NCBI GenBank assembly: GCA_963771355.1
Contig: CAVYTA010000002.1
Location: forward strand, 1 to 64,000
Direction: 5' to 3'
DNA length: 64,000 nt
Source: an uncultured Candidatus Rokubacteria bacterium
GTDB taxonomy: Bacteria > Methylomirabilota > Methylomirabilia > Rokubacteriales > CSP1-6
A program made the translations under genes and the position numbers. Positions 2,788-34,734 of the stretch are shown here, in pieces; within the stretch, counting starts at the first letter, position 1; each line of letters opens with the position of its first letter. A model generated the notes under the pieces. It did not search any database and was not told the DNA's origin. It saw nothing but the letters and a program-made list of their open reading frames with translations.

Positions 2788-2789
2788 CG

Positions 2790-4396: not shown

Positions 4397-4589
4397 CGCA
4401 CTCCCCCATCGCTTCGCACTACTTGAATAGGTCGTAGGAGGCGGAGATCATCCGGAGCATCCGCGGACACGTTAAGATCGCGGTGGCGGAGGTCGGACAT
4501 CAGGAGCGCGTCCGGATTGGTGGGGCTCGTGTCTGCCGGGCCGGGGTTCGATAGCACCCGTTCGTCAAGCAGCCTCACGGAGTCCTGAA

Positions 4590-4770
4590 GGGCCAGCATC
4601 GCTTACACCATCCTGTTGGTGCACGTCCCTGCGGTTGTCGTCGCAGTCTAATACATCGGGCTCAGCGCGCGCCAAGGATTCGTACACAAATTCATCGCCA
4701 AGACTTGTGTTAGTCGTGATACTCGTCCCTCTCGGCATCGTGACGCTCCTCCTGAGACGTGCTTGGCGAG
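4590..4770 (+). pseudogene. Degenerate exosortase C-terminal remnant
   Basis: Translates VAV*YIGLSARQGFVHKFIAK / LVLVVILVPLGIVTLLLRR versus exosortase LAVYYIGPSAAQGFIHNSIAKGVWALTLVSLVILALILRR. Confidence 0.65.
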
Positions 4771-5002
4771 AGCCCAGCGGCGCGGACAAACCGGTACTGC
4801 ATAATCTATGACGTTTTTTGCATAATTAAGGTAAGCATTTGCATTGGAAGACTGGCTTCCGTGGAATTCCGGAGCCCCGTCGATCGCGGCCGCCCGCGGG
4901 CCACCCCAAGAGACATTCTGGCTGAGGGCTAAGCGGTTCCTCTTTCGGCATTCCGGGGGCTTGTATCATCGGCACTGACTCAGGAGGAGGAGGAGGCTTT
5001 CA

Positions 5003-6742: not shown

Positions 6743-6947
6743 CAGCTGTCGGGCGAGGCAGCAAGGCACGGACCACTATTCTTCCCTCCGACATGATCAC
6801 AAGGAGCTCGCCCGCCCGCGGTACGCCGGAGGTTGATCGGCTGGCATCGCCTTGCTCAGACCTTCGAAACAGGGCAGCTCCCTAGGTCCCCCGCAGTCCG
6901 AGCGGGTCAGAGTCGGCCCCGGGCGCCTCCTCGCAGAATTGACCCAC

Positions 6948-6963
6948 TGTCGACCAGATGACA
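6948..6963. promoter_or_regulatory. Putative sigma-54 activator (bEBP) upstream site TGT-N10-ACA
   Basis: TGTCGACCAGATGACA about 85-100 bp upstream of a sigma-54 promoter; present in mirror arm. Confidence 0.35.
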
Positions 6964-7045
6964 CTGTTACGACGATCGAACCATCCGCTCACATGGCTTC
7001 AAGTGGCCTGGATTGTAACTGCTTGGTCTTACAGAAGAAAACTTG

Positions 7046-7061
7046 TGGCACGCCCGTTGCT
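7046..7061 (+). promoter_or_regulatory. Sigma-54 (-24/-12) promoter
   Basis: TGGCAC-GCCCG-TTGCT, exact TGGCAC-N5-TTGCW; IHF-like AT-rich element just upstream. Confidence 0.8.
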
Positions 7062-7096
7062 GCTCTGAAAGGCCACAAAGGCAAAGAGCGAAAGCC

Positions 7097-7186
7097 CCGT
7101 CCCGAAAAGGCAAACCCGCCGCGAGGTGGGGGCGCAAAGCCACGGGTCAGGCATCGGGCCTGACAGCCGGGCTGTCGAAGGAAGGG
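7097..7186 (+). ncRNA. c-di-GMP-I (GEMM) riboswitch, C92U variant
   Basis: GAAAAGGCAAACCCGCC-GCGA-GGTGGGGGCGCAAAGCCACGGGTC...GACAGCCGGGCTGTCGAA; P2 with GNRA loop and P3; lies in the 5' UTR of GH-B. Confidence 0.9.
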
Positions 7187-7221
7187 AACGAGGGTCATCG
7201 CAACGTGGAGGAGGTTCTCCA

Positions 7222-9413
7222 ATGGCCCTCAGGTGGCTCCTTGCGCTACCCTGCTGTCGTCTCTCTTCCTGCCTGTCCCCGCGGCGACGGCTCAGACCCT
7301 CGATCAATACGGCGGCTATGCGTCCCTGCCCGTGCCGGGTGGGGCAACCGGCTCCTTCCGGGTCGGGAAAATCGGCGACCGGTGGGTCTTTGTCACGCCC
7401 GAGGGCAATGCATTCTGGATGACCGGGGTCTACAACATTAATGCCGATACCCGGTTGTCGATCTTGCGGCAAAATACGGCGGGACAAACCCGCAGGCATC
7501 GTTTGGCATCGGGGCGACCAAGCGCCTGACATCGTGGGGCTTCAATTCCGTCGCGGAGTACTCGTCGGCATATGTGAACCCCTATCGACCGGTGTCGTGG
7601 AGATGCCTCGTGATGGTTATGGCCCGATCAAGCGCCAAAGGGAATTCGCTGCACGGCGCCTATGTACAGCATAAGAAACGTAACAAAAGCCCTTATAGAC
7701 GCCGTTCCTCTACCTTTCCTTTAAGAGTCGTAAGTTCCCCGATATCTTTGATCCAGCTTTGCAACTACTGGATGCCTACATGCCGGCCTTGTGGCCATCC
7801 CTACTATGCGCGGGCGGCGACCTCGCCGTGGCGCATCGGCGTTAGCATGGACGACACTGATGACCTCTTCGGCTTTGGGCCCGGCCCAGAGGTGCCCGCG
7901 GCACACCTCCATCCTCATCCCTCATGGTATGCCATCGCGGCTCCTCAGCCACGGCGTCCAGCGCCAAGCAAGCGAGACGTACACCGACCCCAAGGTCTAC
8001 ATAAAGTACGCACTCCGGAATTCTCCAGGGGCGTACGGGACGTTGGCGCCTTGAACACCGCGTGGGGGTCAAACTACACGACGTTTGACAGCGCCGGCGG
8101 GCTGGGGAGCGGGCACGGGCTGGCTCGATGAAGACGGGCGCCAGACAGCCTGGCTGGGCACGACCGACGGCAACTAGCGCGAGCCACGCCAGGCGGTCCG
8201 AAGGGACCTCGATGATTTCCTCTACGAGATTGCCACATCAATACTTCTCGGTCTCGAGCGGCAGCGGTCCGTACGGCCGCGCCCAATCAGCTCATCTGGG
8301 GCCGGCCTCCCATCAACGGGTGGGGCGGGCTCCCGCGGAGACAGATCCTTCAGGCGGCCGGGGAGTACACTCGATGTTCTCAACGCGACGAGCTAGCGGT
8401 GCAGAGTACCGCGGACAACAGTGGCCTACCCTGGCGACAAACCCTGTGTGCTCGGGCGGGGTTTACGGCCAATTCCGATTCTGGCATGTCCCCGTACCCG
8501 ATCGCCGCGGCACGACTCTCGCCTATTATTTCACATGACCGATCAGGGTGCGCGTGGCTCGAATTACGCCTGCACGATATGGCGTTTCTCCTCTCAGGGC
8601 GCCGATCGGTTGTCGGGCATCAAATGGTGGGCAGTGGCAGGACAAGTGGGGCGAGAAGCTCAACTGGGGGCTGACGACCCTCAGGATAATGCCTATGATG
8701 GGGTCGAGGCGCGTGTCGCCGTCGGACCGATCCGTGGGGCTATGCGACTAGGCGGGGAAGACAGGGACTACGGCGATTTCTTGACCTCGGTAATGACGGC
8801 AAACGCTGGGGTGGCCGCGCAATCGGCGCCGGAGGCGGCCGTCCGCCGTCGACCACCGTGTCAATAAGCTCGCCGACGCCGGGAGCACGGTGCAGCAGAC
8901 CGTCACCGTCTCCGCAGCAGCCTCGACCTCTGCCGTTCGCGTCGATCTGGCTTTGGACGGGGCCTTGTAGGCATCTTTAGTGGAACGGTGGCCCAGTATC
9001 CCTGGGATACGACGGCGTCGCCAACAGCACGCACCGGTGGATCGCGAAGGCATATGATGTTTCGGGGCTTCAGTCACGTCCTCTCCCGTGGACGTCATCG
9101 TCAGCAACGCCGGCACCTCGGATACCACGCCGCCTGTGGTGTCCATCACGCAGCCGACGAATGGAAGCTCCGTCGTCCGAAAGACGAAGACCACGATCCA
9201 GGCGACCGCCTCGGATAATGTCGGTGTAACGCGCGTGGAGTTTTACGTCAACGGCAGCCTGAAGTGTTCGGTTACCGTAGCCCCCTATGCCTGCCAGTGG
9301 CAGGTGCCTGCGGCCAACCCGGCCACGGAAAAGTGTATAGTCTTCAGGCGAAGGCCTACGATGCACAGGGTAACGTGGGCTCCTCCAGCATTGTGACGGT
9401 GCAGTCACAATAG
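7222..9413 (+). pseudogene. Glycoside hydrolase copy B with two C-terminal Ig-like domains; heavily frameshifted (possibly sequencing error)
   Basis: GGAGGAGG RBS then ATG; fragments match GH-A in several frames; C-terminal DTTPPVVSITQPTNG...TRVEFYVNG Ig-like repeat. Confidence 0.7.
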
Positions 9414-9525
9414 GAGTCCTCGGTGCCTCCGGACGCCTGGGGATGTGGTGGTCTATGGCCTCACTGTTCGTGCCCCCGCTGGGGTGCCCACGAGTTGTGG
9501 TGACGTTGGCAGTGGCTCCACTGCC

Positions 9526-9583
9526 ATCGTCCGGATTGTGCTCAAGACAGGCAGCTCCCTGTCTTGAGCACAATCCGGACGAT
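9526..9583. repeat. Perfect 26-bp hairpin at the palindrome centre
   Basis: ATCGTCCGGATTGTGCTCAAGACAGG-cagctc-CCTGTCTTGAGCACAATCCGGACGAT. Confidence 0.95.
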
Positions 9584-9696
9584 CGCAGGCGAACCCGCTG
9601 CCAACGTCGCCACAGCTCGATGGGCACCCCAGCGGGCACACGAGCGGTGAGGCCATGTCCCACCACATCCCCAGGGTCCGGAGGCACCGAGGATTC

Positions 9697-11897
9697 CTAT
9701 TGGGCCTCCACCGTCACAATACTGGAGGAACCCACGTTACCTCGTGCATCGTAGGCCTTTGCCTGGAGACTATACGCTTTCCCGCTGGCCGGGTTGGCCG
9801 CAGGCACCTGCCATTGGCAGGCATAGGGGGCTACGGTAGCCGAACACTTCAGGACGCCGTTGAGGTAAAACTCCACGCGCGTTACGCCGACATTATCCGA
9901 GGCGGTCGCCTGGATCGTGGCCTTCGTCTTGCGGACGACGGAGCTTCCATTCGTCGGCTGCGTAATGGACACCACAGGCGGCGTGGTATCCGCGCTGCCG
10001 GCGTTGCTGACGGTGACGTCCACGGGAGAGGACGTGACTGAAGTCCCGGAACCGTCATAGGCCTTCGCGACCCACCGGTGCGTGCCGTTCTGCGATTTCG
10101 TCGTATCCCAGGGATACTTGGACCACCGTCCCACCAAAAATGCCTACAAGGCTCCCGTTCAAAGTCAAATCGACACGAACGGCGGAGCTCGAGGCTGCTG
10201 CGGAGACGGTGACGGTCTGCTGCACCGTGCTCCCGGGCGTTGAGCTGATTGACACTGAGGCCGATGGCGGGTGCCGCCCCGGCGCCGATTGCCGCGGCCA
10301 CCCCAGCGTTCGCGGTCATTACCGAGCTCAGGAAATTGCCGTAGTCCCTGTCCTCCCCGCCCACCGCGAATCCAGACGAATTGGTGCCGGCGGCGATCCG
10401 CGCCTCGATCCCATCATAGGCATTGTCCTTGAGGACGTCAGCCCCCAGTTGCGCTTTTCGCCACGAGTCCTGCCATGCCCACCATTTGAGCCCGACAACC
10501 GTCGGCACTGAGAGGAGAAACGCCATGCGTGATGGATAATACGAAGCCCGCGCAGCCTGATTGGTCACTGTAAAATCATAGGCCACATTGTTGCTTGACG
10601 GACTATCAGGGTACGCGTATATCCCAGAATCGGGATTGGCCGTATACCCTTCCCAGGTCACAACCGGTTTGTCACCATAGTAGGCCTTTGTTTTGTCCGC
10701 GGTATTCTGACTGCTAATCATCGCGTTGAGCACATCAACCGACTCCCCGGCAGCTTGCAGGATCTGTTTCCTCGTGAGCCCGCCCCACCCGTTTAGCGAG
10801 GCCGGCCCCCACATGAGCTGATTGGGCGCGGCCGTACGGACCGCTGCCGTCACGACGGAGAAGTATTGATGTGCAATCTCGTAGAGGAAATCATCGAGGT
10901 CTTTCGTGACCCCTGGCGTGGCTCCCGCCAGGGTGGCGTTCGTCGTGCCCAGCCAGGCGGTATGGCGCCCATCTTCATCGAGCCAGCCGGTGCCCACACC
11001 CCAGCCGCCGGCACTGTCCCACGTCGTGTAGTTTGACCCCCACGCCGTGTTCAGGGCGCCAATCGTCGCGTAACGCCCCTGAAGGAATTCCCGCAATGCG
11101 TACTTTGTATAGACCTTGGTGTCGGTGTACGTCTGCCCCCACTTGACGCTGGACGCCGTGGCTGAGGATGCCGCAATGGCATACCACGAGGGATGCGGAT
11201 GGAGGCGTGCCGAGGGCACCTCTGGGCCCGGCCCGAATCCAAAGAGATCGTCCGCGTCGTCCACGCTGACGCCGATGCACCACGGCGAGTCGCCAGCCCA
11301 CCCCAGAAGGGATCGTTCACCACAAGAGCCGGCATGTAGGCGTCCACGTAGTTTGCATACGCTGGATCAAATACATCGGGGAACGAACGACTGATAAAGG
11401 AAAGGTAGAGGGAACGGCGTCTATAAGGTCTTTGTACGTTTCTCCTGCCAGTACATAACCGCCGGTGTTGCCAAATCCCTTTGACGTGGGTCGGGCCATA
11501 ATCATCGCGGGCATCTTCACGACACCGGCTCATAGGGGTACACATAGGCCGACGAGTACTCCGCGACGGAATTAAAGCCCCACGATGTCAGGCGCTTGGT
11601 CGCCTCGATGCCAAACGATGCCTGCGGGTTTGTCCCGCCGTATTTTGCCGCAAGATCGACAAACCGGGTATCGGCATTAATGTTGAAGACCCCGGTCATC
11701 CAGAATGCATTGCCCGCGGGCGTGACAAAGACCCACCGGTCGCCGAGTTTCCCGACCCGGAAGTACCCGGTTGCCCCACCCGGCACGGGCAGGGACGCAT
11801 AGCCGCCGTATTGATCGAGGGTCTGAGCCGTCGCCGCGGGGACAGGCAGGAAGAGAGACGACAGCAGGGTGAGCGCAAGGAGCCACCTGAGAGCCAT
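9697..11897 (-). CDS. Glycoside hydrolase copy B' with Ig-like domains (several frameshifts)
   Basis: ORFs 11517-11993, 11317-11520, 11051-11545, 9882-11264, 10055-10255 and 9697-10137 tile one GH50-like plus Big-domain protein. Confidence 0.7.
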
Positions 11898-11932
11898 TGG
11901 AGAACCTCCTCCACGTTGCGATGACCCTCGTT

Positions 11933-12022
11933 CCCTTCCTTCGACAGCCCGGCTGTCAGGCCCGATGCCTGACCCGTGGCTTTGCGCCCCCACCTCGCGG
12001 CGGGTTTGCCTTTTCGGGACGG
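11933..12022 (-). ncRNA. c-di-GMP-I (GEMM) riboswitch, second copy, C92U variant
   Basis: Reverse complement of 7097-7186. Confidence 0.9.
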
Positions 12023-12057
12023 GGCTTTCGCTCTTTGCCTCTGTGGCCTTTCAGAGC

Positions 12058-12073
12058 AGCAACGGGCGTGCCA
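12058..12073 (-). promoter_or_regulatory. Sigma-54 promoter (mirror copy)
   Basis: Reverse complement TGGCACGCCCGTTGCT. Confidence 0.8.
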
Positions 12074-12376
12074 CAAGTTTTCTTCTGTAAGACCAAGCGG
12101 TTACAATCCAGGCCACTTGAAGCCATGTGAGCGGATGGTTCGATCGTCGTAACAGTGTCATCTGGTCGACAGTGGGTCAATTCTGCGAGGAGGCGCCCGG
12201 GGCCGACTCTGACCCGCTCGGACTGCGGGGGACCTAGGGAGCTGCCCTGTTTCGAAGGTCTGAGCAAGGCGATGCCAGCCGATCAACCTCCGGCGTACCG
12301 CGGGCGGGCGAGCTCCTTGTGATCATGTCGGAGGGCAGAATAGTGGTCCGTGCCTTGCTGCCTCGCCCGACAGCTG

Positions 12377-14110
12377 TCAACGGATCCCACCGGTCGGGCC
12401 GCCGATTGCCGCGGCCACCCCTGCGTTTGCGCTCTTGACCGAGCTCAGGAAATTCCCGTAGTTCCGCTCTTCCCCGCCGGTCTTGTAGCCCCAGGGATCG
12501 GTGCCGATGGCGATCCGCGCCTCGACCCCATCGTAGGCATTGTCCTTCAGAGACGTCAGCCCCCAGTTGCGCTTCTCGCCCCACGAGTCCCGCCATGCCC
12601 ACCACTTGAGCCCGACAACCGTCTGTACCGACAGAAGAAAGGCCATACGTGTCGTGTAGTACGATGCCCGGGCGGCTTGATCGGCCACCGTAAACTTGAT
12701 AGGCCACATTGTCACTGAGCGGCTATTCAGGGTAGAGCGTAAATCCCAGAATCGAGATTGGCCGTGTACCCCTCCCAGGTCACAACGGGTTTATCACCGT
12801 AGTAGGCCTTCGTTTTGTCCGCGACATTCTGACTGCTAATCATCGCGTTCAGCACATCAACCGACTCGCCGGCGGCTTGCAGAATCTGTTTCCTCGTGAG
12901 CCCGCCCCACCCGTTGAGCGAGGCCGGGCCCCACATGAGCTGATGGCGCGGTCGCCCGGACCGCGGCCGCCACGATGGAGAAGTATTGATGCGCAATCTC
13001 GTAGAGGAAATCATCGAGGTCTTTCGTGACCCCTGGCGTGGCGCCCGCCAGGGTGGCGTCTCGCGCCAAGCCAGGCCGTGTGGCGCCCATCTTCATCGAG
13101 CCAGCCGGTGCCCACCCCCCAGCCGCCGGCACTGCCCCACGTCGTATAGTTTGACCCCCACGCCGTGTTCAGGGCGCCAATAGTCGCGTAACGCCCCTGA
13201 AGGAATCCCTGCAAGGCGTACTTCGTGTAGACCTTGGTGTCGGTGTACGTCTGCTTCCACTTCGCGCTGGACGCCTTCGCTGGGAATGCCGCCATGGCAA
13301 ATCACGAAGGATGCGGATGGAGGCGTGCCGAAGGCACCTCTGGGCCCGGCCCGAATCCAAAGAATCGTCCGCGTCGTCCACGCTGACGCCGATGCACCAC
13401 GGCAAGGTCGCCAGCCCACCCCAGAAGGGATCGCACCACAAGGGCCGGCATGTAGGCATTGACATACGTTGCGTACGCGGGATCAAATACGTCAGGGAAT
13501 GAACGACTCGCATAAGTATAGAGGGACCCAAGGAGTCGATCAGGTCCTTGAACGCGCCGCCTGCAGGCACATGACCCCCCGAGTTCCCGAGCTCCTCCTA
13601 GGTCGGGCGCGCCAAAATCATCGCGGGCATTTTCACGACACCCGCTCGATACGGGTACACATAGGCCGACGAGAACTCCGCGACGGAATTGAAGCCCCAC
13701 GATCTCAGGCGCTTGGTCGCCTGGATGCCAAACGATGCCTGCGGGTTTGTCCCGCCGTACTTCGCCGCAATATCGACAAACCGGGTATCGACATCAATGT
13801 TGAAGACCCCGGTCATCCAGAATGCATTGCCCGCGGGCGTGACAAATACCGACCGACTACCGAGTTTCCCGACCCGGAAGCGCCCCGTCGCGCCACCCGG
13901 CACGGGCAGGGATGTATAGCCGCCGTATTGATCGAGGGTCTGAGCTGTCGCCGCGGGGACAGGCAGGATCAGAGACGACAACAGCGCCAGCGCAAGGAAC
14001 CACCTGAGGGCTCTTGGAGAGCCTCCTCCATGCTGCCGGGGACCAGTGCACTCGATCGGCCTTGCTAGGATCCCGCTAGCGCTTGGACTCCTCTTCGCCG
14101 GGCGCTCCAT
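12377..14110 (-). pseudogene. Glycoside hydrolase copy A' (frameshifted)
   Basis: Same N- and C-termini as 5003-6742; broken into about 6 ORFs; also carries genuine substitutions (YKTGGEERNY versus YATGGEAGNY). Confidence 0.7.
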
Positions 14111-14334
14111 TGAAAGCCTCCTCCTCCTCCTGAGTCAGTGCCGATGATACAAGCCCCCGGAATGCCGAAAGAGGAACCGCTTAGCCCTCAGCCAGAATGT
14201 CTCTTGGGGTGGCCCGCGGGCGGCCGCGATCGACGGGGCTCCGGAATTCCACGGAAGCCAGTCTTCCAATGCAAGCGCTTACCGTAACTGTGCAAGGAAC
14301 GTCACAGATCATGCAACGCCGCTTCGTGCTCGCC

Positions 14335-14500
14335 AGGGCGCCTCACAGGAGCGTCAGATGCCGCGAGGGATGAGTACACGACTCACACCTCCTTGGCGAT
14401 GAATTTGTGTACGAATCCTCGACCCGCGCTGGGTCCGATGATTAGACTGCGACGAACCGCGGTGACGTGCACCAACAGGATGGTATAAGCGATGCTGGCC
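14335..14500 (-). pseudogene. Degenerate exosortase C-terminal remnant (mirror)
   Basis: Translates IGPSAGRGFVHKFIAKEV* versus IGPSAAQGFIHDSIAKGVW. Confidence 0.6.
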
Positions 14501-14690
14501 CTTCAGGACTCCATGAGGCCGCATGACGAACGGGGGCTATTGAACCCGGCCCTGCCGGAACGGCGTGACAATCGGCGGCGGCGCTCCTGAGGACCGTCCT
14601 CCTCCACCGCGATCTGAAGGTGTCCGCGGATGCCCCGGATGATCCCACCTCCTACGACCTATTAAGTAGTGGAAGCGAAGGGGGAGAGAG

Positions 14691-15345
14691 ATGAGTCGCG
14701 GCTCGATGACATGGTCGCTCCTCGGGGCCTGGCTGGCCGCCGTCGTGACCGTGGTCCCTGCCGGAGCCGACGAGTTCTCCCTGACGCGCTGTTTAGCCAC
14801 CGGCAGCGGGTCAAACTCGGTGCGGCCGTCGCATGCCCAGGGGATCGACATAGAACGTCACTTAGCCTGCTACGAAGCCCAGCGCGAGTACGAGCTCAGG
14901 CGCCAGGCCAAAGAGACGGTAGAGCGCGAGCACCAGCGCCGCGGCGGCGGAGGTGGAAGCGCGACGGCAGGCGGAGGCCCAGGCGAAGGAGACAGCCGAG
15001 CAGGCGGCCAAGGAGAAGAGCAGGGCGCGTCAGGAGGCCGCGCGCGCGCGTAAGGCCGAAGAGGTCGAGCGCGCGCGGAGGCCCGTGAGGCCAAAGAGAT
15101 CGACGCCGCCCGTCGGATCGAGGCCCAGCAGGAGACTGAGCGCGCCCGGCGTGCCGCGCACAGGAGCGCGCGGAGCAATTCATGCCCCGAGCGTGCGCGA
15201 CGCCAGATCTGATCGCCAAGTGCGCGATGTCACAGGACCCAGTACTGGAGCAGATCAGGAAATCCCAGGAGAACGCAGCGAGAGGCAGGCCGAGTCGATG
15301 AACGCCGGCGAGGCCATGGAAGTGTCACTTCGCCGAAAAGCCTGA
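14691..15345 (+). CDS. Secreted coiled-coil protein (frameshifted), paralog of 3652-4396
   Basis: ORFs 14691-15053 and 14953-15345; signal peptide. Confidence 0.55.
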
Positions 15346-15411
15346 CGCCTTGACAACGGGCGGGTATGTTCATTGTGTTCGAGCCTGCCTGCGTGATCGC
15401 GGGCTCAGGCC

Positions 15412-16284
15412 TTGAACCAAACAACTCTTCTCAAGCTCATAGTCTCGGGACTCATCCTGGCGCCCCTCTACGCGCCCGTCGCCCGAGACCTTGCCCAGGC
15501 CTGGTGGACGCATCAGTACGCGGGGCATGGGCCCTTGGTCCCTGCGTTTAGCGCGTTCGTGCTCTGGACCGATCGAGCCCGGATCCGAGCCGCCGCCACG
15601 CCGGGGCACGTGATCGGCCTTGCGGTCATCCTGCTGGCGCTGGGACTCCTCTTCGCCGGGCGCTCGACCGCAAGCCTCCTCCTGCAGGGTGTGTCCCTCG
15701 TCATGTGTCTGGCGGGTATGGTGCTCTGGATCCTCGGGCCGCGAACGTTGCAGGCCGCGGCCTTCCCCGTCGCATTCCTTCTATTCATGCTGCCCCTCCC
15801 GAGCCCGGTGGTCAGCGCCGTGACCGAGGACTTGCAGCTCTTCGCGGCGTGGATCGCTGGGGCGGCGCTCGATGCTTTTGACGTCCCCTTCTTTCTGGAC
15901 GGCGTACAGATCCAGCTTCCCGGCATCACGCTGGCCGTGGCCACGGTCTGCAACGGGCTCCGCTTCCTGTTGGCGCTCCTGGTGGTGACCATCGCCTTCG
16001 CCCACCTGAGCCAGCGGAGTCTGCCGCGCAAGCTGATCCTGATAGCCTCGGCGCTCCCGATCGCCATCCTGGCCAACGCGGTCCGCGTTGCCACAATTGC
16101 CCTCGCTGCGTACTATATCGGGCCCAGCGCGGCGCAAGGCTTCATCCATGACTCCATCGCCAAGGGTGTGTGGGCCATTACCCTCGTGCCGCTCGTCATT
16201 TTGGCGTTCATCCTGCGACGCGGTGGTGAAAGCCCACGCCTCGAAGCATCTCATTCGGTACCACTCGGAGGGGCGTCACGATGA
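15412..16284 (+). CDS. Exosortase family protein (intact, no EpsI domain)
   Basis: Multi-TM; AVATVCNGLRFL, ANAVR, FIHD triad motifs. Confidence 0.9.
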   Translation: MNQTTLLKLIVSGLILAPLYAPVARDLAQAWWTHQYAGHGPLVPAFSAFVLWTDRARIRAAATPGHVIGLAVILLALGLLFAGRSTASLLLQGVSLVMCLAGMVLWILGPRTLQAAAFPVAFLLFMLPLPSPVVSAVTEDLQLFAAWIAGAALDAFDVPFFLDGVQIQLPGITLAVATVCNGLRFLLALLVVTIAFAHLSQRSLPRKLILIASALPIAILANAVRVATIALAAYYIGPSAAQGFIHDSIAKGVWAITLVPLVILAFILRRGGESPRLEASHSVPLGGASR

Positions 16285-18459
16285 AGCGTGGGTCCTCCGC
16301 CTATTTTCTGCTTTTACTCGTTGGGCTCGCGTTCCTCAGCCTCAGCTGCTCCCGGAGCCCCGAGGCCACGAAGGCCAGGCACTGGCAGCGCGGACTGAGT
16401 TTCGCGGAGAAGGAAAAGACCGCGAAGCCATCCTCGAATTCCGTAGATTCCTCGTCCTCGACCCCAACCACGCCGAGGCCTACTACCGGATCGGGCTCGC
16501 CGCCTTCAAGCTCGGGGAGGGCTCGCTCGCGCAAACAGCCCTGACCAAGAGCCTGGAGCTGAACCCGGAGCAACCAGATGCCAGGTTGAAGCTCGCCACC
16601 GTGCTCATCGCCAGGCGGGATTGGGCCAAGGCCCGCGACCAGATTCAGACCGTCCAGGCGAAGGATGCAACAAATCATGACGCCCGGCTTCTCATGGCTG
16701 CCGTCTACGAAGGGGAAGGAGACCGAAAGCGCGCAATCGCAGAGCTGGCCCCCATCGTGGAGAACAGGCCTGATGATGCTCGAAGTCATGCTGCTCTGGG
16801 CGAGCTTCTGCGGGCACAGGAGGATAATCAGGGCGCGGAGAAGCATATGCTCGAGGCCATTCGCCTCGCCCCCACCAAGATCGAGTATCGCCTGGCCCTG
16901 GCGAACCACTATCGCAGGCTCGGACAAGCAGCTCGAGCCGAGGCAACCTACAAGGAAACTCTCAAGATCGATGATCCTGCCTCCGCCCCGGTCAAGCTGG
17001 CGCTGGCGGACTTCTACGACAGTCAGCAGCGCTGGGCGGAGGCCGAGGCGCTTTTACTCGAGATGCTCGCCAAGAACCCGGACAACGTCCGGGCCCGTCA
17101 CGGACTGATCAGCGTGCTACTGAAAGAAGGGAAACTGTCCGATGCGAGAAGGGAGCTGAAGACGCTTCTTGCCAAGAATCCCTCGGATGTGGAGGGGCAC
17201 TATTACCTGGGGCGACTCGAGCTGCGTGAGAATCACCTCCAAGAGGCCATCCAGGAGTTCCTCCAAGCGGTGAAGCTCGAGCCGCGGCTGGCCCGAGCCC
17301 ACCACAGCCTTGGGCTGGCGTACCTCCGGAGTGGAAATCTTCCCCAGGCGAGACAGGCCTTCAGGGCAGCTCTCAACGCTGCCCCAGACTCCATCGAGTC
17401 AGCGTTGCAGCTAGCCGAGTCGGACCTCCGGCAGGCGCTACGCAGCCAGCGATCGAGGGCTTGGAAAGGCTAATTGCAAAGCGACCCGATACAGTCCACG
17501 CGTATGTGCTATTGGGCTCAGCGTACCTGGCGAAAAGAGAGGCCGTCAAGGCAACCGAGATTTATCGCAAGCTGTTGAAGCTGGCGCCCAAGGACCCGCA
17601 GGGTCCCTACCTTGTCGGGGTTGGCCTCCGCGCTCAAGGGAAAACGCCTGAGGCCAAGAAGCACTTCGAGACGGCTCTCGATCTTGCGCCCGCTCATGTG
17701 CCTGCGCTCGAGCAGCTAGTCTCCATGGCGCTCGCCGAGAAGCAACCCGACGCCGCTCTCGAGCGCGTCAAGAGGCAGCTCGCACTTGCTCCGAAGTCCC
17801 CGCAACTTTATTCCGAATTGGGGCGGGTCCATGAAGCAAGAAAGGAAACCGGCCTCGCCGAGACCGCTTATTTGAAGGCCCTCGAGCTGGAGCCACGGAT
17901 GTTCAGCGCATTCATGCGGTTGGCAAATCTTTACTCAAGTTCAGGGCAGTACGATCAAGGAATCGCGAAGCTGAATGGCGCGCTCAAACTGGACCCGAAG
18001 AATGTGGTCGCGCTCACGGTTCTGGGCCTTCTGTACCAGCAGAAGGGTGAAATGCAGAACGCACAACGGGCCTACGAACAGGCGCTGGCGATCAATCCCC
18101 GGCTCGCCCCCGCGGCGAACAACCTTGCCTGGATCTACTCCGAGTACGGGGGCGACAAGGAGAAGGCACTTCAGCTCGCTCAGACGGCCAGGGAGGCGCT
18201 CCCAGAGGACCCCGGCATCTCGGACACCCTCGGGTGGATCCTCTACAAGCGAGGCGTCTACCAACGCGCCTTGAGCTTGTTGCAGGAGAGCGCGGGCAAG
18301 ATGCCCGCGAACGCCGAGGTGCAGTACCACCTGGGGATGACGCACTTCAAGCTGGGCAACAAGGCAGCGGCGAAACAAGCACTCGCCGAGGCCCTGAAAC
18401 TGAGCCCGACATTCCAGGGAGCGGATGAGGCCAAGACAATCCTGGCCAAGATCGACTAG
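16281..18459 (+). CDS. PrsT-like TPR lipoprotein (frameshifts near 16418 and 17435)
   Basis: Lipobox LSLSC; collinear with 601-2787 but clearly diverged. Confidence 0.8.
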
Positions 18460-18570
18460 CTGGGGATCGCCGTCAATGCACTACATAGCCGCTGCAGTCT
18501 CATGCAGCAATCCTGCAACAGGATGCGACCCCATTGGCTCTAAACTATTGAAATATTGGACGGGAACCTG

Positions 18571-19622: not shown

Positions 19623-21238
19623 TCAGCGCTGTTGGCGCGGAGACTCCTTCAGGAGCCAGTCGATGATCGCGGAGGGATCCTGGGTCTCACGCTCCGGACG
19701 GGCCTCTTGACGGGAGGCAGCACCGCTCTCCGGCGCAGGCCTGACCGGGACACGGGACGTCGCTTCTGCGCGCTCCGCGGAGCCGGCGGTGGGGTCCTGA
19801 CCCTCTCTGACGGTGGCGGGGGCGTGCCCCGGACACGAGGCGTTCCCTGTGTGCCCTCCGGCGTCGAGGGTAGCGCGGTCCTGCTCGCCGGTGACGCCGG
19901 CACGGGCGGTGTGGCCCGGGGCATTACCGGGGTCCCCTCCCGCGCCAAGGACGGCGTGCTTGTGACGGCCGGTGGCGTCGGAGGAATCGGTTCGGTGCGC
20001 GGGACCGGCGGCGGGACCGGCGGGCTTATGACGACTTCCGCCGGTCGCCCGACCGCCGCCGGCTCGGGGACTCCCGCCGCTGGGACGCGCGGGGACTGAG
20101 CAGCCGGAGTGGCATGAATCACCGGCGCCACCGGCGGCGGGTCCGTCGCGCGGTACCGGGTGACCCAGGCGCCGAGCGCGATCACCGCTACGACCAGGGC
20201 ACCTATGCCCACCGTCCGCCACCGCGCCCGCGGCCACACGGCGCGCACTGGGCCCTCGACCGCGGGGATTGGGCGATCCGCCATTGGGGGATCCGCCACG
20301 GGGCGCTCCGTCGCCCGCTTGAGCTCCACCCACAGCGCGTTGACCACGGCACCCATGTCATGTGCTCGTGGCTCCGGCGACTTGACCAGGGCCTGCATCA
20401 CGAGCTCTCGGACTGCCGCGGGCACCTCGGGACCGAGCGTCCGCTCGGGGTGCGGGTCGGAGCCTTCGCTCTGGGGCCGCACCGCGCCGGTGAGCATCTG
20501 CATCAGGAGGCGGCCGAAAGCCTGGATATCCGCCTGCTCGGTCAAGCCTCCAGCCTTGAGACCCGCCCCTCCGAGGCGCGCGACCTCGAATCCCGTGAGC
20601 TTGACGGTGTCCTCCGCGCCGATCAGCACGTGCTCGGCGTCGAGGGCGCCGTGGATGAACACGAGATTATGGGCGGCCTGGAGGCCGTCGGCGATCTCGA
20701 AGGCCAGGCGCAGTGCGCGCTCGACGGGGAGCGCTCCCTCCTGGCCGATCACATCAGCCAGGCTGCGCCCGTCGAGAGGCTCCAGAACCAGGAAGTCCCG
20801 GCCGTCCGCCGTGCGGTCGCAGTCGTGCACGATGGCCACGTTGGGGCGGATCCGGGCGACGGCGCGCGTGACCGACAGCTCGGCCCGGAGGCGAGAGACG
20901 ATCTCGTCATCCAGCTCAATGCCGGCTGGCAGGAGCTTGAGGGTCACCTCGGCGCCCGTCTCCCCGTCATGCGCGATGTACAGATTGCCCGATGGCCCCG
21001 CGGCAAGCTGCCGCGACACTTGATACCGCGCCTTGATCGCGCGGCCGATCCAGGGATCCTGGGTGGCGTCGGCGCGGACAGAGGATCCCGGATCGGCGTC
21101 CAGGGTCGCGACCGGCTTCGCTTCACCGTCCTTTTCGCCGACCTCAAGGGCTCGATGGAGCTGCTCGTCGACCGCGATCCCGAGGAGGCGCGCAAGCTCC
21201 TTGACCCTGTCCTCGAGCGAAGGATTGGGCTCCATCAT
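19623..21238 (-). CDS. Membrane Ser/Thr pseudokinase with Pro-rich tail (frameshift near 19710)
   Basis: Hanks-kinase fold but IHGALDAEHV and TGFE replace HRDLKPEN and DFG; TM helix; C-terminal DPSAIIDWLL. Confidence 0.75.
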
Positions 21239-21391
21239 CCCTTACCTCCTCGGCGTGCCTGTGCGGCGAACCGAGCCGAGCCGGGGCTCCATGACCATCA
21301 CCGGGTTCCACTCCACCTGCGCGGTATCGCGGGGTCCGTGGGGGCCCAAGGCTAGCACGACTGCGGCCGTCCCAGATGCCCGAACTTTGCC

Positions 21392-22963
21392 TTATTCCAC
21401 CCCTGCCCGCGACGGCGGCCGCGGGGACCGTCGGAGCCGCCGCAGCTCCTGGATGACGAGCTGGACGGCGTTCGTCGACGTCCAGTAGAGGACCATGCCG
21501 GCGGGGGCCGTGTAGAAGAGCAGGAAGAAGAGCAGGGTCATGCCGGACAGGTTCCGGCGCTGCCGGCGAACCAGTGGCGGCGGGAGGACGGGCGAGTGGA
21601 ACCGTAGCAGCGCAGCCAGCGAGACGCTGCTCATCAGGAACGGCAGCAGGTTCAGGTAGCACCCGAAGAACGGCAGGCATCCAGGCAGGCGGAGCAGCTC
21701 GTCCGGACGCGACAGATCGGACATCCAGAGAAACGAGGCCCGATAGAGAGTGAAGTCCTCGGCGAGCATGTCGAACACCGCGATGAACGCGGGGATCTGG
21801 ATCAGGAAGCCGAGCAGGCTCTTCAGCGTGTACAGCGGGTGCACGCCCGCGTCGCGGTACAGGGCCACCGTACGCCGGGCGCGCTCCTCGCCTCGATGAG
21901 CCGCGTTGATGGCGTCGATCCCGGGCCGGAGCCGCGCCTGGGTGGCATTGACCTGCTCCTGCAGCCGGTCGGCCACCACGGTCAGGGGCAGGAGGAGGAT
22001 CTTGACGCAGATCGCGAGGGCGATGATCGCCACGCCGGGATGGCCGACGATCGCGGTCAGCCCGCGGAACAGGGACAGGAGCGCCAGGCTCAGCACCCGC
22101 AGCCAGGACCAGAGCCCCGAGAAGAGCATCGCCTCGAGCGACGGATCCGCGCGGGTCAAGGCGCGGCCCTCCAGCGGCCCGGAATAAAACGTGTAGCGCC
22201 ACGAGAGCTCGTCCGAGGCGTCCGCGAGCAGGGCGACGCCCGCGCCGGGGCGCGGAGCCAGGGCGGCGGCCCGGTCCGGACGCAGGACGATCGCCCAGAA
22301 CCGACTGCGAACCCCGGCCCAGTCGCCGGCCCGAAGCGAGACTGGATCCCGGCCGTCGTCGCCGAGAACGCGGACGCTCCCGTCGGCGACGACCACCCGC
22401 TGCACGCGCTCGAGCTGCGCGGCGAAGCCGGTGGCCGGAGAGGGGTGGAGATCATGGCCCGCTTCGAGGTCCAGCTCCAGTCGTCGGTCGGTCATGAACG
22501 CGGCCGCGTCCGCGCCCAGCAGTCGTACCGTCATGACGACCTCGTATCCATCCTTGGAGACCTCGAACGTCTTCACCAAACGGATGCGGCCGCCCGACAG
22601 GTCGGATTGGAACGTGACGTGCCATGCGCGCGCCTCCTCGGTGAGGGCGGCGGTGAAGCGCAGGCGCTGGAGATCCACGGCCGGACCGGGGCCGCGGAGG
22701 CTCAGCCGCGCCTGCGGCGGATCATCGGCGCCGGTGAACCGGACCGAGGTGCCCGATGCTCCGTCGGCCAGCGCGCAGGAGGGATGGCAGGCCCGCCAGG
22801 CCACCGGGCCGGCGCCCTCGAGGGCGAACACCAGGTCGAGCTGGCCGGTCGTCAGGCGGACCCGGCTGGGGCTCGTCTCCTCGGCGGCGACGGGGCTGGC
22901 GATCGCGCCGGCGAGCAGGAGCAGGCCGACGAGCGAGCCGGTCGGGCGGTTCCGTCCAGCCAT
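21392..22963 (-). CDS. yidC: Membrane protein insertase YidC paralog
   Basis: Periplasmic domain with YSGP; AIIALAICVKILLLPL, LIQIPAF, FLWMSDLSRPD, GMVLYW motifs. Confidence 0.85.
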   Translation of the reverse strand: MAGRNRPTGSLVGLLLLAGAIASPVAAEETSPSRVRLTTGQLDLVFALEGAGPVAWRACHPSCALADGASGTSVRFTGADDPPQARLSLRGPGPAVDLQRLRFTAALTEEARAWHVTFQSDLSGGRIRLVKTFEVSKDGYEVVMTVRLLGADAAAFMTDRRLELDLEAGHDLHPSPATGFAAQLERVQRVVVADGSVRVLGDDGRDPVSLRAGDWAGVRSRFWAIVLRPDRAAALAPRPGAGVALLADASDELSWRYTFYSGPLEGRALTRADPSLEAMLFSGLWSWLRVLSLALLSLFRGLTAIVGHPGVAIIALAICVKILLLPLTVVADRLQEQVNATQARLRPGIDAINAAHRGEERARRTVALYRDAGVHPLYTLKSLLGFLIQIPAFIAVFDMLAEDFTLYRASFLWMSDLSRPDELLRLPGCLPFFGCYLNLLPFLMSSVSLAALLRFHSPVLPPPLVRRQRRNLSGMTLLFFLLFYTAPAGMVLYWTSTNAVQLVIQELRRLRRSPRPPSRAGVE

Positions 22964-24759
22964 CAGCGGAAGAACCGGCTCATCTCTTTCTGCGCGGCCC
23001 GCAGGCTCTCGCGTGGGAGCGCCGGGTAGGCCACCAGCCGGTAGTCGCGATCGCGGATTTCGTAGCTGGCCGGATACACGATGGTCACCCGGTCCGGTTC
23101 GATCAAGGCGAACTCGCTGTAGCTCGCGGCGATGAGCCAGTCCCACTCCCCCTCCGAGAAGAGATCCCGGCCGCTCGCGTAGTCCGACGCCGGATTCGCG
23201 CAGCCGAAGAGCCCGGCGACCAGGGTCGGCGCCACGTCGTTGTGCGAGGTCCGCCGCGCCACGCGTCCCGGCGGCCGCCCGGGCCAGCCCAGCACCAGGG
23301 GGGTGTGCAGCTGGTGGCGGCTGTACGCCGTGCCGTGCCCCGTGAAGCCCTGCCCGTTCTCGTCGAACTCCATGCCGTGATCGGACGTCACGAGGACCAC
23401 GGTGGACTCCAGCAGCTTCCGCCGCTCCAGATCGTCGAGCACCCGCCCGACCAGGGAGTCCACATAGTGCACCGCGCTCAGGTAGCGGCCGTACCGGCGT
23501 TGCTGCGTCGAGGCGCCGGGGGCGATCGGGACCACCGGGGCGTAGCTGTCCGGCGGGTCGACCGCCACCGCGGCGTTGTAGTAGAGCAACCCGAAGAACG
23601 GCCGCGCCGGGTCCCGCCGATCGAGCCAGCCATACCACTCGTCGGTCAAGCCCCGGTCTTTCTCGCTCCACCCACGATATCGCGAGCTCGTCCTCAGGCG
23701 CAGATCTGGAACGCCGGCCAAGGCCGTCCGATCGAGCCCCACCCCTTCGTCGAGCGGCGCGCTGACGAACAACCCGAGCTGGTAGTCGTACTGTCGGAAC
23801 AGGTCCATCACCACCGGGGGCCGGGCGAGGTCGGCGAAGGCGTCCCAGTAGGTCGCGGGGATGCCGTAGAACAGCGAGAACATGCCGGCCCGCGACGAGT
23901 TACCGCCGCTGTAATGCTGGTCGAACTGGATCGCACCGCGCGCGAATTCGGCCAGCCGCGGCGCGACGGCGACCGTGAGCGCATCCGCCCGCATCGCGTC
24001 GATCACCACGAGCAGCACGTTGAGCCGCGGCGCGCGGGGCTCGCACCGCAGGGGCGCCAGCGGGTAGCGCAGCTCGCCCGCCGGCGTTCCGCCGAGGGCG
24101 GCGATGACGCCTCGCTCCCGCGCCCGCGCCCGGTCCACGAGGCCCAGCTTCACCTGGAGCGTGGTGGCCCTCAGCGGTCCGTAGAGCGGCAGGTAGCGGG
24201 TGAACGAGGTCACCGGCACGTCGTAGCGTGCCTCGGCCCACGCGTAGATCAGGTGACCGGCCACGAAGCAGGCCCCCAGGCCCAGCGCCAGGTACCGCCC
24301 CCAGCGGCGCGCCGGGGGCCGCGCGGTGCGCTGCCAGACCCAGCCCGCCAGCATTCCCTCGATCGCCACGCCCACGACGACGTAGAGGCCGAGAAAGCTC
24401 CAGGTCTGCGGCGCCAGCAGGATGAACGTCAGGACGCTGAGATGGTACCGGTTCTCCGCGAAGACCAGGCTGTCCAGCAGCAGCAGGCTCCCGCCGATGC
24501 TGCCCAGCACGACGCCGAGCGGCACCACCAGCCGCGGCCGCGGGCTCAGCAGGATCACCGGCATCAGCATCAGCAGACACGGGAGATAGGCGAGCGCACT
24601 CACGTGCCCCACATAGGCGAGAGGCACGTAGCCCCAGGCCACCGACGGCGAGAGACGAACGTAGAGCCACAGATACCGGAGCCCGATGATCCCCAGGAGG
24701 GCCGCGTTGGCGGCCGCGAACCAGCTCGCCCACCGGAGGAGGCGCCTCCTCGAGCTCAC
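22963..24759 (-). CDS. DUF3413/YejM(PbgA)-like membrane sulfatase-superfamily protein
   Basis: N-terminal TMs; LRYPLAPL, NVLLVVIDAMRAD, HYSGGNSSRAGMFSLFYG, TSDHG. Confidence 0.8.
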   Translation of the reverse strand: MSSRRRLLRWASWFAAANAALLGIIGLRYLWLYVRLSPSVAWGYVPLAYVGHVSALAYLPCLLMLMPVILLSPRPRLVVPLGVVLGSIGGSLLLLDSLVFAENRYHLSVLTFILLAPQTWSFLGLYVVVGVAIEGMLAGWVWQRTARPPARRWGRYLALGLGACFVAGHLIYAWAEARYDVPVTSFTRYLPLYGPLRATTLQVKLGLVDRARARERGVIAALGGTPAGELRYPLAPLRCEPRAPRLNVLLVVIDAMRADALTVAVAPRLAEFARGAIQFDQHYSGGNSSRAGMFSLFYGIPATYWDAFADLARPPVVMDLFRQYDYQLGLFVSAPLDEGVGLDRTALAGVPDLRLRTSSRYRGWSEKDRGLTDEWYGWLDRRDPARPFFGLLYYNAAVAVDPPDSYAPVVPIAPGASTQQRRYGRYLSAVHYVDSLVGRVLDDLERRKLLESTVVLVTSDHGMEFDENGQGFTGHGTAYSRHQLHTPLVLGWPGRPPGRVARRTSHNDVAPTLVAGLFGCANPASDYASGRDLFSEGEWDWLIAASYSEFALIEPDRVTIVYPASYEIRDRDYRLVAYPALPRESLRAAQKEMSRFFR

Positions 24760-33012: not shown

Positions 33013-34734
33013 TCAGCGCTGTTGGCGTGGAGACCGCAGGAGCCAGTCGATGATCGCGGAGGGATCCCGCTCCGGACGGGGCTCTTGACTGGAGGCACCG
33101 CTCTCCGGCACAGGCCTGAGCGGGACACCGGACGTCGCCTCCACGCGCTCCGCGGGCGCCGCCGGCGGGGGCGTGACCGTCGCGGGTGCCGGCGGGGACG
33201 CGACCGTTGCGGGCGCTGGCAGCGGGGGCGTGACTGTCGCGGGTGCTGGCGGGGGCGCGACCGTTGCGGGCGCCGACAGCGGGGGCGTGACCGTCGCGGG
33301 TCGCTGCCGGCGGGGGCGCGACCGTCGCGGGCGCGGGCGGGGACGTGACCGGCGGGGGCGCCGGCGGCGGGGGCGTGACCGGCGGGGGCGCGACACTCGC
33401 TAACTCTGTCGGGGGCCTGACCCTCACGGGCGTTGGCCCGGGCGTGACCCGGACGAGAGGCGTGCCCTGAGCGCTTCCCGCTATCGAGGGTGGCGGGGTC
33501 CCGGTCGCCGGTAGTGCCGGATCGGGCGGTGTGGCTCGGGGCGTCACCGAAATCCCCTCCGGCGTCACGCCGGCGGGCTCTTGAAGGCCGGTTCATTCCG
33601 AGGAATCGGTTCGCTGCGAGGAGGCGGCGGTGTGATCGGCGTCCTGACGGCGACTTCCGCCGATCGACCGACTGGCGCCGGCGCGGGGGCTCTCGGCGCC
33701 CGGGTTGGCGGGGTCCGGCGAACCGGACCTTGAATCGCGATCGGCTCCGGCGGCGGGGCCGTCGCAAGGTGCCAGGAGACCCAGGCGCCGAGCGCGATGA
33801 CCCCCACGACCAGCGTGACCAGGGCGCCTATGCCCACCATCCGCCACGGCGCCCGCCGCCGCGCCCGCGGCTGCACGGCGGATGCTGAGTCCCGGTCCGT
33901 GGGGCCTGGCCGCTCCGCCACCCGATAGAGCTCCACCCACAGCGCGTTGGCCACGGAACCCATATCAGGGGCTCGTGACTCAGGCGACCTGGCGAGGGCC
34001 TGCATCACGAGCTCTTTGACGGCCGCGGGCACCTCGGGACCGAGCTGCCGCTCGGGGCGCGCGCTGGAGCCTTCGCTCGGGGGCTGCACCGCGCCGGTGA
34101 GCATCTGCACGAGGAGCAGGCCCAGGGCCTGGATGTCCGCCTGCTCGGTCAGCCCTCCAGCAGGCTCCGCCGTCTCAAGGCGCGCGACCTCGAATCCCAT
34201 GAGCTTGACCGTGTTGTCCGCGCCGACCAGCACGTCCTCGGCGTCAAGCGCGCCGTGGACCAGCGCGAGATTGTGGGCGGCCTGGAGGCCGTCGGCGATC
34301 TCGAAGGCCAGGCGCAGCGCGCGCTCGACGGGCAGCGCCCCCCCCTGGTCAATCACATCAGCCAGGCTTTGCCCGGCGAGGGGCTCCAGCACCAGGAAGG
34401 CGCGGTCGCTCGCCGTGCGGTCGAAGTCGTGCACGATGGCCACGTTGGGTCGGATCCGGGCGACGGCGCGCGTGACCGACAGCTCGTCCCGGACGCGGCG
34501 GACCTGATCGTCATCGAGCTCGATGCCGATGGGCAGGAGCTTGATGGTCACCGCCGCTCCCGTCTCCCCGTCCTGCGCGATGTACAGATTCCCCGATGGC
34601 CCCGTGGCAAGCCGCCGCGACACCTTGTACCGCGCCTTGATCGCCTGGCCGATCCAGGGATCCCTCTGGCCGTCGGCGCGGACCGGGGATCCCGGGTCGG
34701 CCCCGGGGAACGCAACTGGCTTTGCGTGCTCCAT
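33013..34734 (-). CDS. Second membrane pseudokinase with Pro/Thr repeat tail (frameshifted)
   Basis: Collinear with 19623-21238; VHGALDAEDV, MGFE; C-terminal DPSAIIDWLL. Confidence 0.75.
33160..33392. repeat. Degenerate 27-33 bp tandem repeats encoding TV(T/A)PPPAPA
   Basis: Recurrent GGCGGGGGCGTGACCGTCGCGGG-like units. Confidence 0.75.

Follow-up and report, generated by a model that had tools for sequence, protein, structure and literature searches.

A cyclase gene fragment carried antisense and in frame near the start of a predicted pseudokinase gene in a Rokubacteria genome

The kinase-like gene and its cyclase-derived segment

The window, by which we mean the whole 64,000-nt stretch of DNA that was analysed (C2:1-64000), comes from the genome of an uncultured Candidatus Rokubacteria bacterium that comprises 5.5 Mb in 8 contigs, with a GC content of 70% and a completeness of 99.8%. 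On the minus strand of the window, an ORF of 529 aa at 19649..21238, referred to here as k1, is preceded by a GGAGG Shine-Dalgarno sequence (21245..21249, minus strand) lying 6 nt upstream of the start. The ATG ATG start of k1 (21238-21233, minus strand) stands directly ahead of an N-terminus that reads, in translation, MMEP, followed by 35 inserted residues (aa 5-39) and then by AKPVA. Beyond the insert come a linker and then a kinase-like domain, after which the protein has one predicted transmembrane helix and ends in a Pro-rich tail. Residues 72-222 match the Pkinase family (PF00069) with 41.8 bits against a cut-off of 31.7, and the match is limited to positions 1-147 of the 263 positions of the profile. 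Ser/Thr kinases possess a catalytic aspartate in the HRD motif and another aspartate in the DFG motif. In k1 the corresponding positions read HGA (within HGALDAEH) and GFE, and both replacements form invariant columns in an alignment of 52 homologs. Because of these two replacements, pseudokinase is a fair name for k1, and the partial Pkinase match together with the loss of both aspartates sets it apart from the Ser/Thr protein kinases proper. As judged from its sequence, the k1 product is predicted to be a membrane-anchored, kinase-like protein of the pseudokinase type.

A paralog, k2, lies on the same strand at ~33565..34734 and begins MEHAKPVA; downstream of the insertion point, k1 and k2 are ~80% identical in nucleotide sequence. 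Alignment of the 5' DNA of four loci (k1, k2, a third paralog on contig C6, and one close homolog from related genomes) revealed a 105-nt indel, present in k1 only and flanked on either side by conserved sequence. The four loci have in common the upstream sequence, the start codon, and everything from GCG AAG CC onward, with the ribosome-binding site forming part of the common upstream sequence in three of them; the paralog on C6 is without that GGAGG stretch and has a different GGAGG upstream. Adding six metagenome loci gave a ten-locus alignment in which the insert is found in two (k1 and an independent metagenome locus, L013), with identical boundaries, and is absent from the other eight. 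The start codon is kept at all ten loci and the Shine-Dalgarno sequence at nine, and the insert therefore falls within the coding region, where it forms codons 5-39 immediately after codon 4, at 21122..21226 of the minus strand. In both alignments the net gain is exactly 105 nt, with host bases neither lost nor duplicated. Among 40 related genomes, a close homolog of k1 was found in one alone (G002), and it is without the insert. These DNA alignments bear out the first-pass annotation, made on the letters of the window, in its description of a 35-residue insertion between MEP and AKPVA that is absent from the paralog with MEHAKPVA; the extent that it gave, 21125-21224, falls inside the insert and is somewhat short, since the homology described below covers all 105 nt (21122-21226) rather than ~100.

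The insert comes from a class III adenylate/guanylate cyclase gene. Its plus strand translates to FTVLFADLKGSMELLVDRDPEEARKLLDPVLERRI and is an inverted, codon-registered copy of 35 cyclase codons (VTVLFAD...LERMM). In a blastn search, 22 other sites in the genome matched the 105 nt, all of them within ORFs that read the cyclase motif (RKxVTVLFAD...) in sense; the donors lie on contigs other than that of the window. The best match is C6:1496191-1496293 (90.3% over 103 nt, E 6e-32), and 16 of the 22 sites show 78-90% identity over 101-103 nt. The search for a donor by blastn, which the first-pass annotation had recommended, therefore identifies the donor family and, along with the translation, confirms that a cyclase-derived fragment lies antisense to its host gene and in frame with it. 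The genome contains 44 matches to PF00211 (Guanylate_cyc); all four donor ORFs that were tested match this family, with 35-87 bits, and two of the four are full DZR-cyclase-AAA_16-TPR proteins. The captured segment corresponds to PF00211 positions ~6-40, and the fragment had been described as the conserved start of the cyclase proteins. This is accurate for the start of the catalytic domain and inaccurate for the 5' end of the gene, as the segment begins at residues 83-273 of the four donor ORFs in a Pfam scan. The 35-aa peptide encoded on the plus strand has PF00211 as its sole Pfam match, a match below the cut-off (E 0.19, 11.8 bits, profile positions 10-37). A span of ~10-37 in a profile of ~183 positions, antisense to the only credible gene at this site, does not amount to a functional cyclase, and the locus is thus a caution for annotation, because a strong cyclase motif on one strand here is no gene.

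The ends of the insert are well defined. Over the interval from -18 to +220 nt around the start of the segment, the cyclase paralogs retain 0.75-0.87 identity among themselves, and yet the homology of the insert to the cyclases ends within a base of the ends of the indel. Because the homology stops there while the cyclases stay alike beyond it, the ends of the insert are true breakpoints. The last 7 nt are diverged in k1. An orthologous protein, P0006, reads E-H-H-P-S-L-E-D and comparison with L013 agrees, from which it follows that these 7 nt are also cyclase-derived (the reverse complement of ...ATG ATG) and that the homology spans the entire 105 nt.

A second short gene fragment lies elsewhere in the window. 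A 73-nt stretch (3385-3457) that codes on the minus strand and falls within a match to the exosortase family PF09721 has a copy with 88% identity at 4988-5060, at the 5' end of a plus-strand ORF (5003-6742), where it overlaps both the GGAGG and the ATG of that ORF. Source and copy are only 1.6 kb apart and have the same DNA orientation. The first-pass annotation had called the k1 insert the second independent case of its kind in the window, and this fragment is believed to be the other case meant; the 73-nt exosortase fragment does exist, and its proximity and direct orientation mean that it may have arisen differently from the k1 insert.

Authenticity, single origin and conservation of the insert

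The possibility that the insert is a product of assembly was addressed by mapping short-read contigs from four public soil and rhizosphere runs, one of which may be the source of the assembly, onto positions 20700-21700. The right junction is bridged in three of the four runs, representing three studies (X1, 21172-21534; X2, 21169-21608; X8, 21172-21700). At the left junction, one run of the four (X8, 20970-21163) has a contig that reaches at least 31 nt to either side; X1 and X2 cross it with 26 and 29 nt. Among the four runs no contig covers the entire insert, and this breakage in mid-insert would be a feature that speaks for an assembly chimera; the contigs break there because the words of the insert are common to very abundant cyclase genes, with a summed depth of ~1800. 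Stronger support is independent of these runs: L013 carries the full insert with both junctions on an independent metagenome contig at 94.3% identity, and six of 55 database proteins, all from other assemblies, cover the N-terminus and include the insert, with 77-98% identity over residues 1-130. Read support, which the first-pass annotation had named as the test of a chimeric consensus, is thus in favor of the insert. A small mobile element of the MITE or REP-like kind fares no better than a chimera, because the insert is without target duplication, terminal inverted repeat, or any copy outside cyclase genes; the hallmarks of transposable or miniature elements (TIR, TSD, varied contexts) were looked for and not found, and the 22 other copies are all at the homologous position in cyclases. 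An assembly chimera or a mobile element is accordingly so improbable as to be nearly negligible. One contig of X8 that skips from 21059 to 21229 was considered as an insert-free allele, and is read instead as a paralog, because 10 of the 105 nt on its aligned side are mismatched. In RNA runs X15-X20, 5-12% of the words were present.

The distribution of the insert among homologs fits one old event inherited by a clade. In the 52-row alignment the 35 residues are present in 7 rows, a single R or H stands in their place in 39, and 6 rows start later. Residues 40-330 alone were used for a maximum-likelihood tree, from which the frameshifted protein P0008 was left out, and this tree puts the other 6 insert-bearing rows together at one side of a single branch, such that one change is needed. 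The support of the insert-bearing branch is 95/70, and it was recovered in 95% of 200 bootstrap trees.

Comparison of the six insert-bearing proteins shows that the insert is conserved as much as the kinase-like core and more than the adjoining linker. Variable columns number 7 of 35 in the insert and 29 of 151 in the kinase-like core, each with a mean identity of 0.92, compared with 14 of 32 (mean identity 0.81) in the linker and 45 of 88 (0.83) in residues 223-310. In DNA, the differences between k1 and L013 number 6 in the 105 positions of the insert, 9 in the 96 of the linker, and 17 in the 156 of the domain. The insert has diverged less than the third codon positions of its flanks (6/105 versus 13/84, Fisher p 0.03), and the difference from all flank positions is not significant (6/105 versus 26/252, p 0.22). 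A continuous supply of cyclase sequence by gene conversion does not explain the conservation, because k1 and L013 have several derived bases in common, at positions 1, 12, 81, 87, 99, and 101 of the insert, that are rare or absent in 14 cyclases. Taken on six proteins and the one DNA pair of k1 and L013, these figures suggest that the insert is under constraint, of whichever kind, and we infer that its conservation reflects a use for the new peptide. Codon-level tests of selection are underpowered, as the metagenome scan yielded insert-bearing ortholog DNA at one of eight loci. Three of the four codons that differ between the inserts of k1 and L013 carry non-synonymous changes, which is not what strong selection at the level of the peptide predicts.

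Routes of arrival

The insert was probably acquired in a single, old, and accidental capture of a chromosomal fragment during the repair of a double-strand break, and was later retained. The sequence of events would have begun with a break between codons 3 and 4 of the ancestral pseudokinase gene, separating M-E-H/R from A-K-P-V, into which a 105-bp piece of one class III cyclase gene would have been taken as filler to seal the ends. Sealing was most likely carried out by the Ku/LigD end-joining system that the genome encodes. The piece would have entered backwards, its 105 bp divisible by three and its codons in register with those of the cyclase, so that the gene stayed open and gained 35 residues. 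Survival of the gene can be attributed to the multiple-of-three length, and to the fact that the in-register antisense frame is nearly free of stops in a 70% GC genome. The region just behind the start codon is also where an extra 35 residues would most likely be tolerated. The allele would then have become fixed and passed to the whole clade of this paralog, where it appears to behave like constrained coding sequence, with the new residues predicted, at low confidence, to form two short helices ahead of the kinase-like domain.

The machinery for such an event is encoded in the genome, with two matches to Ku (180 and 163 bits) and two to LigD_N; the Ku match at C5:122200-122733 adjoins the LigD_N match at C5:123010-123333. 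A search for RVT_1, the sole reverse transcriptase family that was looked for, gave no match in this 99.8% complete genome and did give matches in control genomes, and templated change by a DGR- or retron-like element is thus without a reverse transcriptase of this family here. The junctions resemble those of end-joining capture, with no target duplication, little or no microhomology, and an unlinked donor. In the observed orientation they have at most 1-2 nt in common with the donor flanks, a count that is limited by a junction divergence of ~10%, which has perhaps erased short original microhomologies and means that the sealing pathway cannot be read from the junctions themselves.

Replicative template switching, by fork stalling or microhomology-mediated break-induced replication, would account for some of the same features, since the insert reproduces a distant locus faithfully between sharp ends, with no host bases lost, and since the exosortase copy lies only 1.6 kb from its source, as the products of template switches often do. 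On this account, the nascent strand would have switched from the kinase template to the opposite strand of a cyclase gene, copied ~105 nt there, and gone back. The at most 1-2 nt in common between junctions and donor flanks in the observed orientation count against it. Two longer matches were considered as causal microhomology and rejected. A 9-nt sequence, ATGATGGAG, occurs both at the start of k1 and in the cyclases immediately 3' of the captured segment, and AAGC(C/A)GGTC gives an 8/9 match on the other side of the segment. Both matches are direct whereas the insert is inverted, and the 9-mer ATGATGGAG is missing from most insert-bearing orthologs, which start MEH. The check for junction microhomology advised in the first-pass annotation has therefore produced nothing convincing in the correct orientation, and template switching is, overall, an unlikely though fair rival to capture during end joining, given that fine detail is worn away in junctions of this age.

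Several known phenomena provide points of comparison. In eukaryotes, repaired breaks can contain filler DNA or templated insertions, including patches of organelle DNA, as known from yeast, from mammalian cells, and from NUMTs. The k1 insert resembles these in that a stretch from an unrelated locus would have patched a break, and differs from them in that eukaryotic filler DNA depends on other repair machinery, is rarely in frame in genes, and is rarely conserved. In overprinting, new coding sequence arises from the antisense strand of an existing gene. The 35 new residues of k1 are likewise an in-register, reverse-complement reading of a conserved cyclase segment, but the antisense reading is in a moved copy and not at the donor locus, and so the two readings evolve independently. 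To our knowledge, natural and fixed in-frame captures with a traceable donor have seldom been documented.

The closest likeness is to non-homologous end joining (NHEJ) in bacteria. Endogenous pieces of 42, 83, and 30 bp were captured at I-SceI repair scars in Streptomyces ambofaciens, with the 30-bp piece coming from the 5' end of a distant gene, among five insertions overall that ranged from 30 bp to 18.8 kb (PMC5869714). An I-SceI break in Sinorhizobium meliloti captured a linear cassette in either orientation, in a manner dependent on ku and ligD (PMC6379672). The k1 insert matches such captures as a short ectopic fragment inserted at one point, without homology or target duplication, from a donor in the same genome; the reported capture sizes of 30-83 bp are comparable with the 105 nt of the k1 insert, and both Ku and LigD are present here. 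Unlike the captures described there, which followed induced laboratory breaks, the k1 insert is natural and ancient, lies in a coding region and in frame, and has been inherited by a clade and conserved.

On the best reading, then, the k1 insert is a natural instance of a known repair accident, and not a new kind of system. Its main interest is that the scar has turned into coding sequence that is conserved, such that the full life history of a repair scar can be followed at one locus, from the donor family and the exact breakpoints to a single origin and survival as conserved protein sequence. The case bears on how proteins gain N-terminal segments, and on the reach of NHEJ in shaping bacterial genomes.

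Present role and recurrence

Three readings remain for what the insert is now: a tolerated N-terminal extension, a recruited helical segment, or a sequence with a role at the level of RNA. An AlphaFold2 model based on the 52-row alignment has a mean pLDDT of 51.9 and places two helices at residues 8-19 and 25-36 with pLDDT of ~56-66, values too low for the model to be used in assigning a structural role. At the RNA level, CCTCCTCGG within the insert is complementary to CCGAGGAGG, the ribosome-binding region of k1 itself. The SD/anti-SD hairpin that this complementarity could form was set aside, because this pairing is absent from the minimum-energy folds of both leaders (k1 and L013). Nor are the leader folds more stable than those of shuffled sequences (z -0.79 for k1, z +1.5 for L013).

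An antisense relationship to the cyclase mRNAs had been raised in the first-pass annotation as possible regulation. The insert is complementary to cyclase segments over 97-103 nt at 78-92%, and predicted RNA duplexes between the insert and 14 of these segments have energies of -134 to -204 kcal/mol, compared with -75 +/- 5 kcal/mol for shuffled sequence. These energies would be compatible with retention of the insert for the sake of a trans antisense RNA, namely the 5' coding part of the pseudokinase mRNA acting against cyclase mRNAs. So would the lower divergence of the insert relative to the third codon positions of the flanks, and so would the predominance of non-synonymous changes among the altered codons, which is compatible with a constraint not purely on the peptide. 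The strength of the duplexes follows, however, from the inversion itself, complementarity being a property of any inverted copy. Furthermore, the target lies 83-273 codons inside the scanned cyclase ORFs, away from their ribosome-binding sites, the leaders of k1 and L013 have no special fold, and the counts are very small. Antisense regulation of cyclase mRNAs would be physically possible, and retention by virtue of such a function is for these reasons very unlikely. The broader proposal, in which the pseudokinase mRNA would be the antisense partner of at least 14 cyclase-AAA-TPR mRNAs and the exosortase fragment a second example of the same route, has a slightly smaller chance still of being correct. 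If true, it would link the expression of a membrane pseudokinase with cyclic-nucleotide signalling by way of pairing between mRNAs, and the regulator would be one born from a repair scar.

The first-pass annotation had gone beyond the single locus to suggest a recurrent templated-insertion process, that is, a dedicated process of this lineage by which short antisense gene fragments are copied to the 5' ends of genes. The occurrence of two cases within one 64-kb window is what makes the suggestion attractive, and isolated short repeats are indeed numerous in the genome (352 pairs of 60-160 nt with at least 84% identity and unrelated flanks). The calls of reading frame in the flanks of such repeats are noisy, with both sides in agreement in 34 of 338 pairs, and a GC3-based gene caller that covered 71% of the genome and missed k1 was abandoned. 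Comparison of the genome with itself yielded 296 clusters of isolated short matches, of which 14 passed a filter for orphan fragments. The k1 insert is the clearest orphan of these, with all of its partners (12/12) located in long paralog alignments. Nine of the other 13 filtered loci were inspected in detail, in addition to 8 further pairs, and consist of conserved motifs of paralog families, leader or signal-peptide repeats, and dispersed repeats without coding function. At the protein level, a scan of the window, run in a fast mode that may miss weak matches, yielded the k1 insert and the exosortase repeat and nothing else.

No further clear orphan gene fragment was found in these limited genome-wide scans, which operate without proper gene calls, depend on a surviving donor that is still ~80% identical or more, and favor donors present in multiple copies. 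The search for similar short antisense captures that the first-pass annotation had called for thus adds no clear case beyond the exosortase fragment, and the process that it postulated is not sustained. The k1 insert is one old event, 22 of the 22 other copies of its segment sit in cyclase genes, the inspected loci that passed the orphan filter are conserved motifs or repeats, and the protein scan of the window shows the two cases alone. A bias towards 5' ends is to be expected in any event, because insertions are best tolerated at the N-terminus. A dedicated recurrent process is for these reasons improbable, and capture of the k1 insert in one accident of break repair is the preferred reading.

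Two minor observations concern the exosortase fragment and the window as a whole. The presence of a second antisense 5'-end fragment in the same 64 kb hints that such events may be commoner here than the term one-off would convey. Both exosortase stretches, the source and the copy, are mirrored in the other arm of an 18-kb inverted duplication.

Dispersed short repeats in the genome

The genome carries many families of dispersed repeats of 55-100 nt, whose copies share 85-98% identity while their flanks are unrelated, and 352 isolated repeat pairs were counted (examples lie at C6:1863431-1863531, C2:123381-123437 and C6:592278-592343, where C2 is the contig that holds the window and C5, C6 and C7 are other contigs of the same genome). 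These short repeats are frequently found near the starts of open frames and resemble REP or MITE-like elements.

Within the window, a stretch of about 67 nt (57736-57802) in the minus-strand hydantoinase gene (56481-58649) is 78-82% identical to short repeats at C6:1092012-1092084, C6:1519698-1519773 and C5:514048-514130. The stretch is read in frame as ISARLDPRCRLPSAAAPSGSGS, at about residues 283-305 of the hydantoinase. Pfam splits the Hydantoinase_A match of this gene into two stretches, the best of which starts at residue 303, adjoining the repeat-matching residues. Positions 57736-57802 have the appearance of a dispersed repeat that entered an enzyme gene without breaking its frame.

Repeated exosortase segments and the inverted duplication

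In self-alignment, window positions 599-18461 match their own reverse complement at 86.5% identity over 18,012 nt, and the region is therefore a giant inverted duplication. Positions 3385-3457, a 73-nt stretch inside a PF09721 match of a minus-strand exosortase gene, recur with 88% identity 1.6 kb away at 4988-5060, and mirror copies of these two stretches lie at 15606-15683 and 14023-14153, respectively. The copy at 4988-5060 overlaps the ATG of a plus-strand ORF (5003-6742) as well as a run of GGAGG repeats, an arrangement in which the antisense exosortase copy may supply the ribosome-binding site and first 19 codons of that ORF. The first-pass annotation had claimed two antisense gene fragments of ~80-105 bp at the 5' ends of genes in the window, and the exosortase copy is probably the first of these.

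Cyclase loci and antisense gene calls

The best donor ORF for the cyclase-derived insert of the pseudokinase-like gene k1 (C6:1496190 region, L021 366-2516) is a single frame of 716 aa, with a TauD-family match at residues 6-143 and a cyclase domain at residues 273-445. A neighbouring cyclase copy, C6:1499950, is only 221-234 aa long and comprises a DZR and one half of a cyclase domain. In several other paralogs, including C7:788612 and C7:769768, the conserved segment is interrupted by gaps or frameshifts; these paralogs could be disrupted genes or artefacts of assembly.

Two arginine-rich proteins in public collections, P0054 and P0055, match the k1 insert at 81-84% identity over ~32 residues. 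Both are antisense translations of cyclase genes, that is, spurious gene calls, and 'proteins' of this kind could misdirect homology searches.

Immediately upstream of k1 lies a minus-strand YidC-type insertase gene (21392-23671, PF02096). A 64-nt stretch at its 3' end (21415-21478) matches C6:2345961-2346032 at 82%, a site ~170 nt upstream of the frame containing cyclase C6:2346468.
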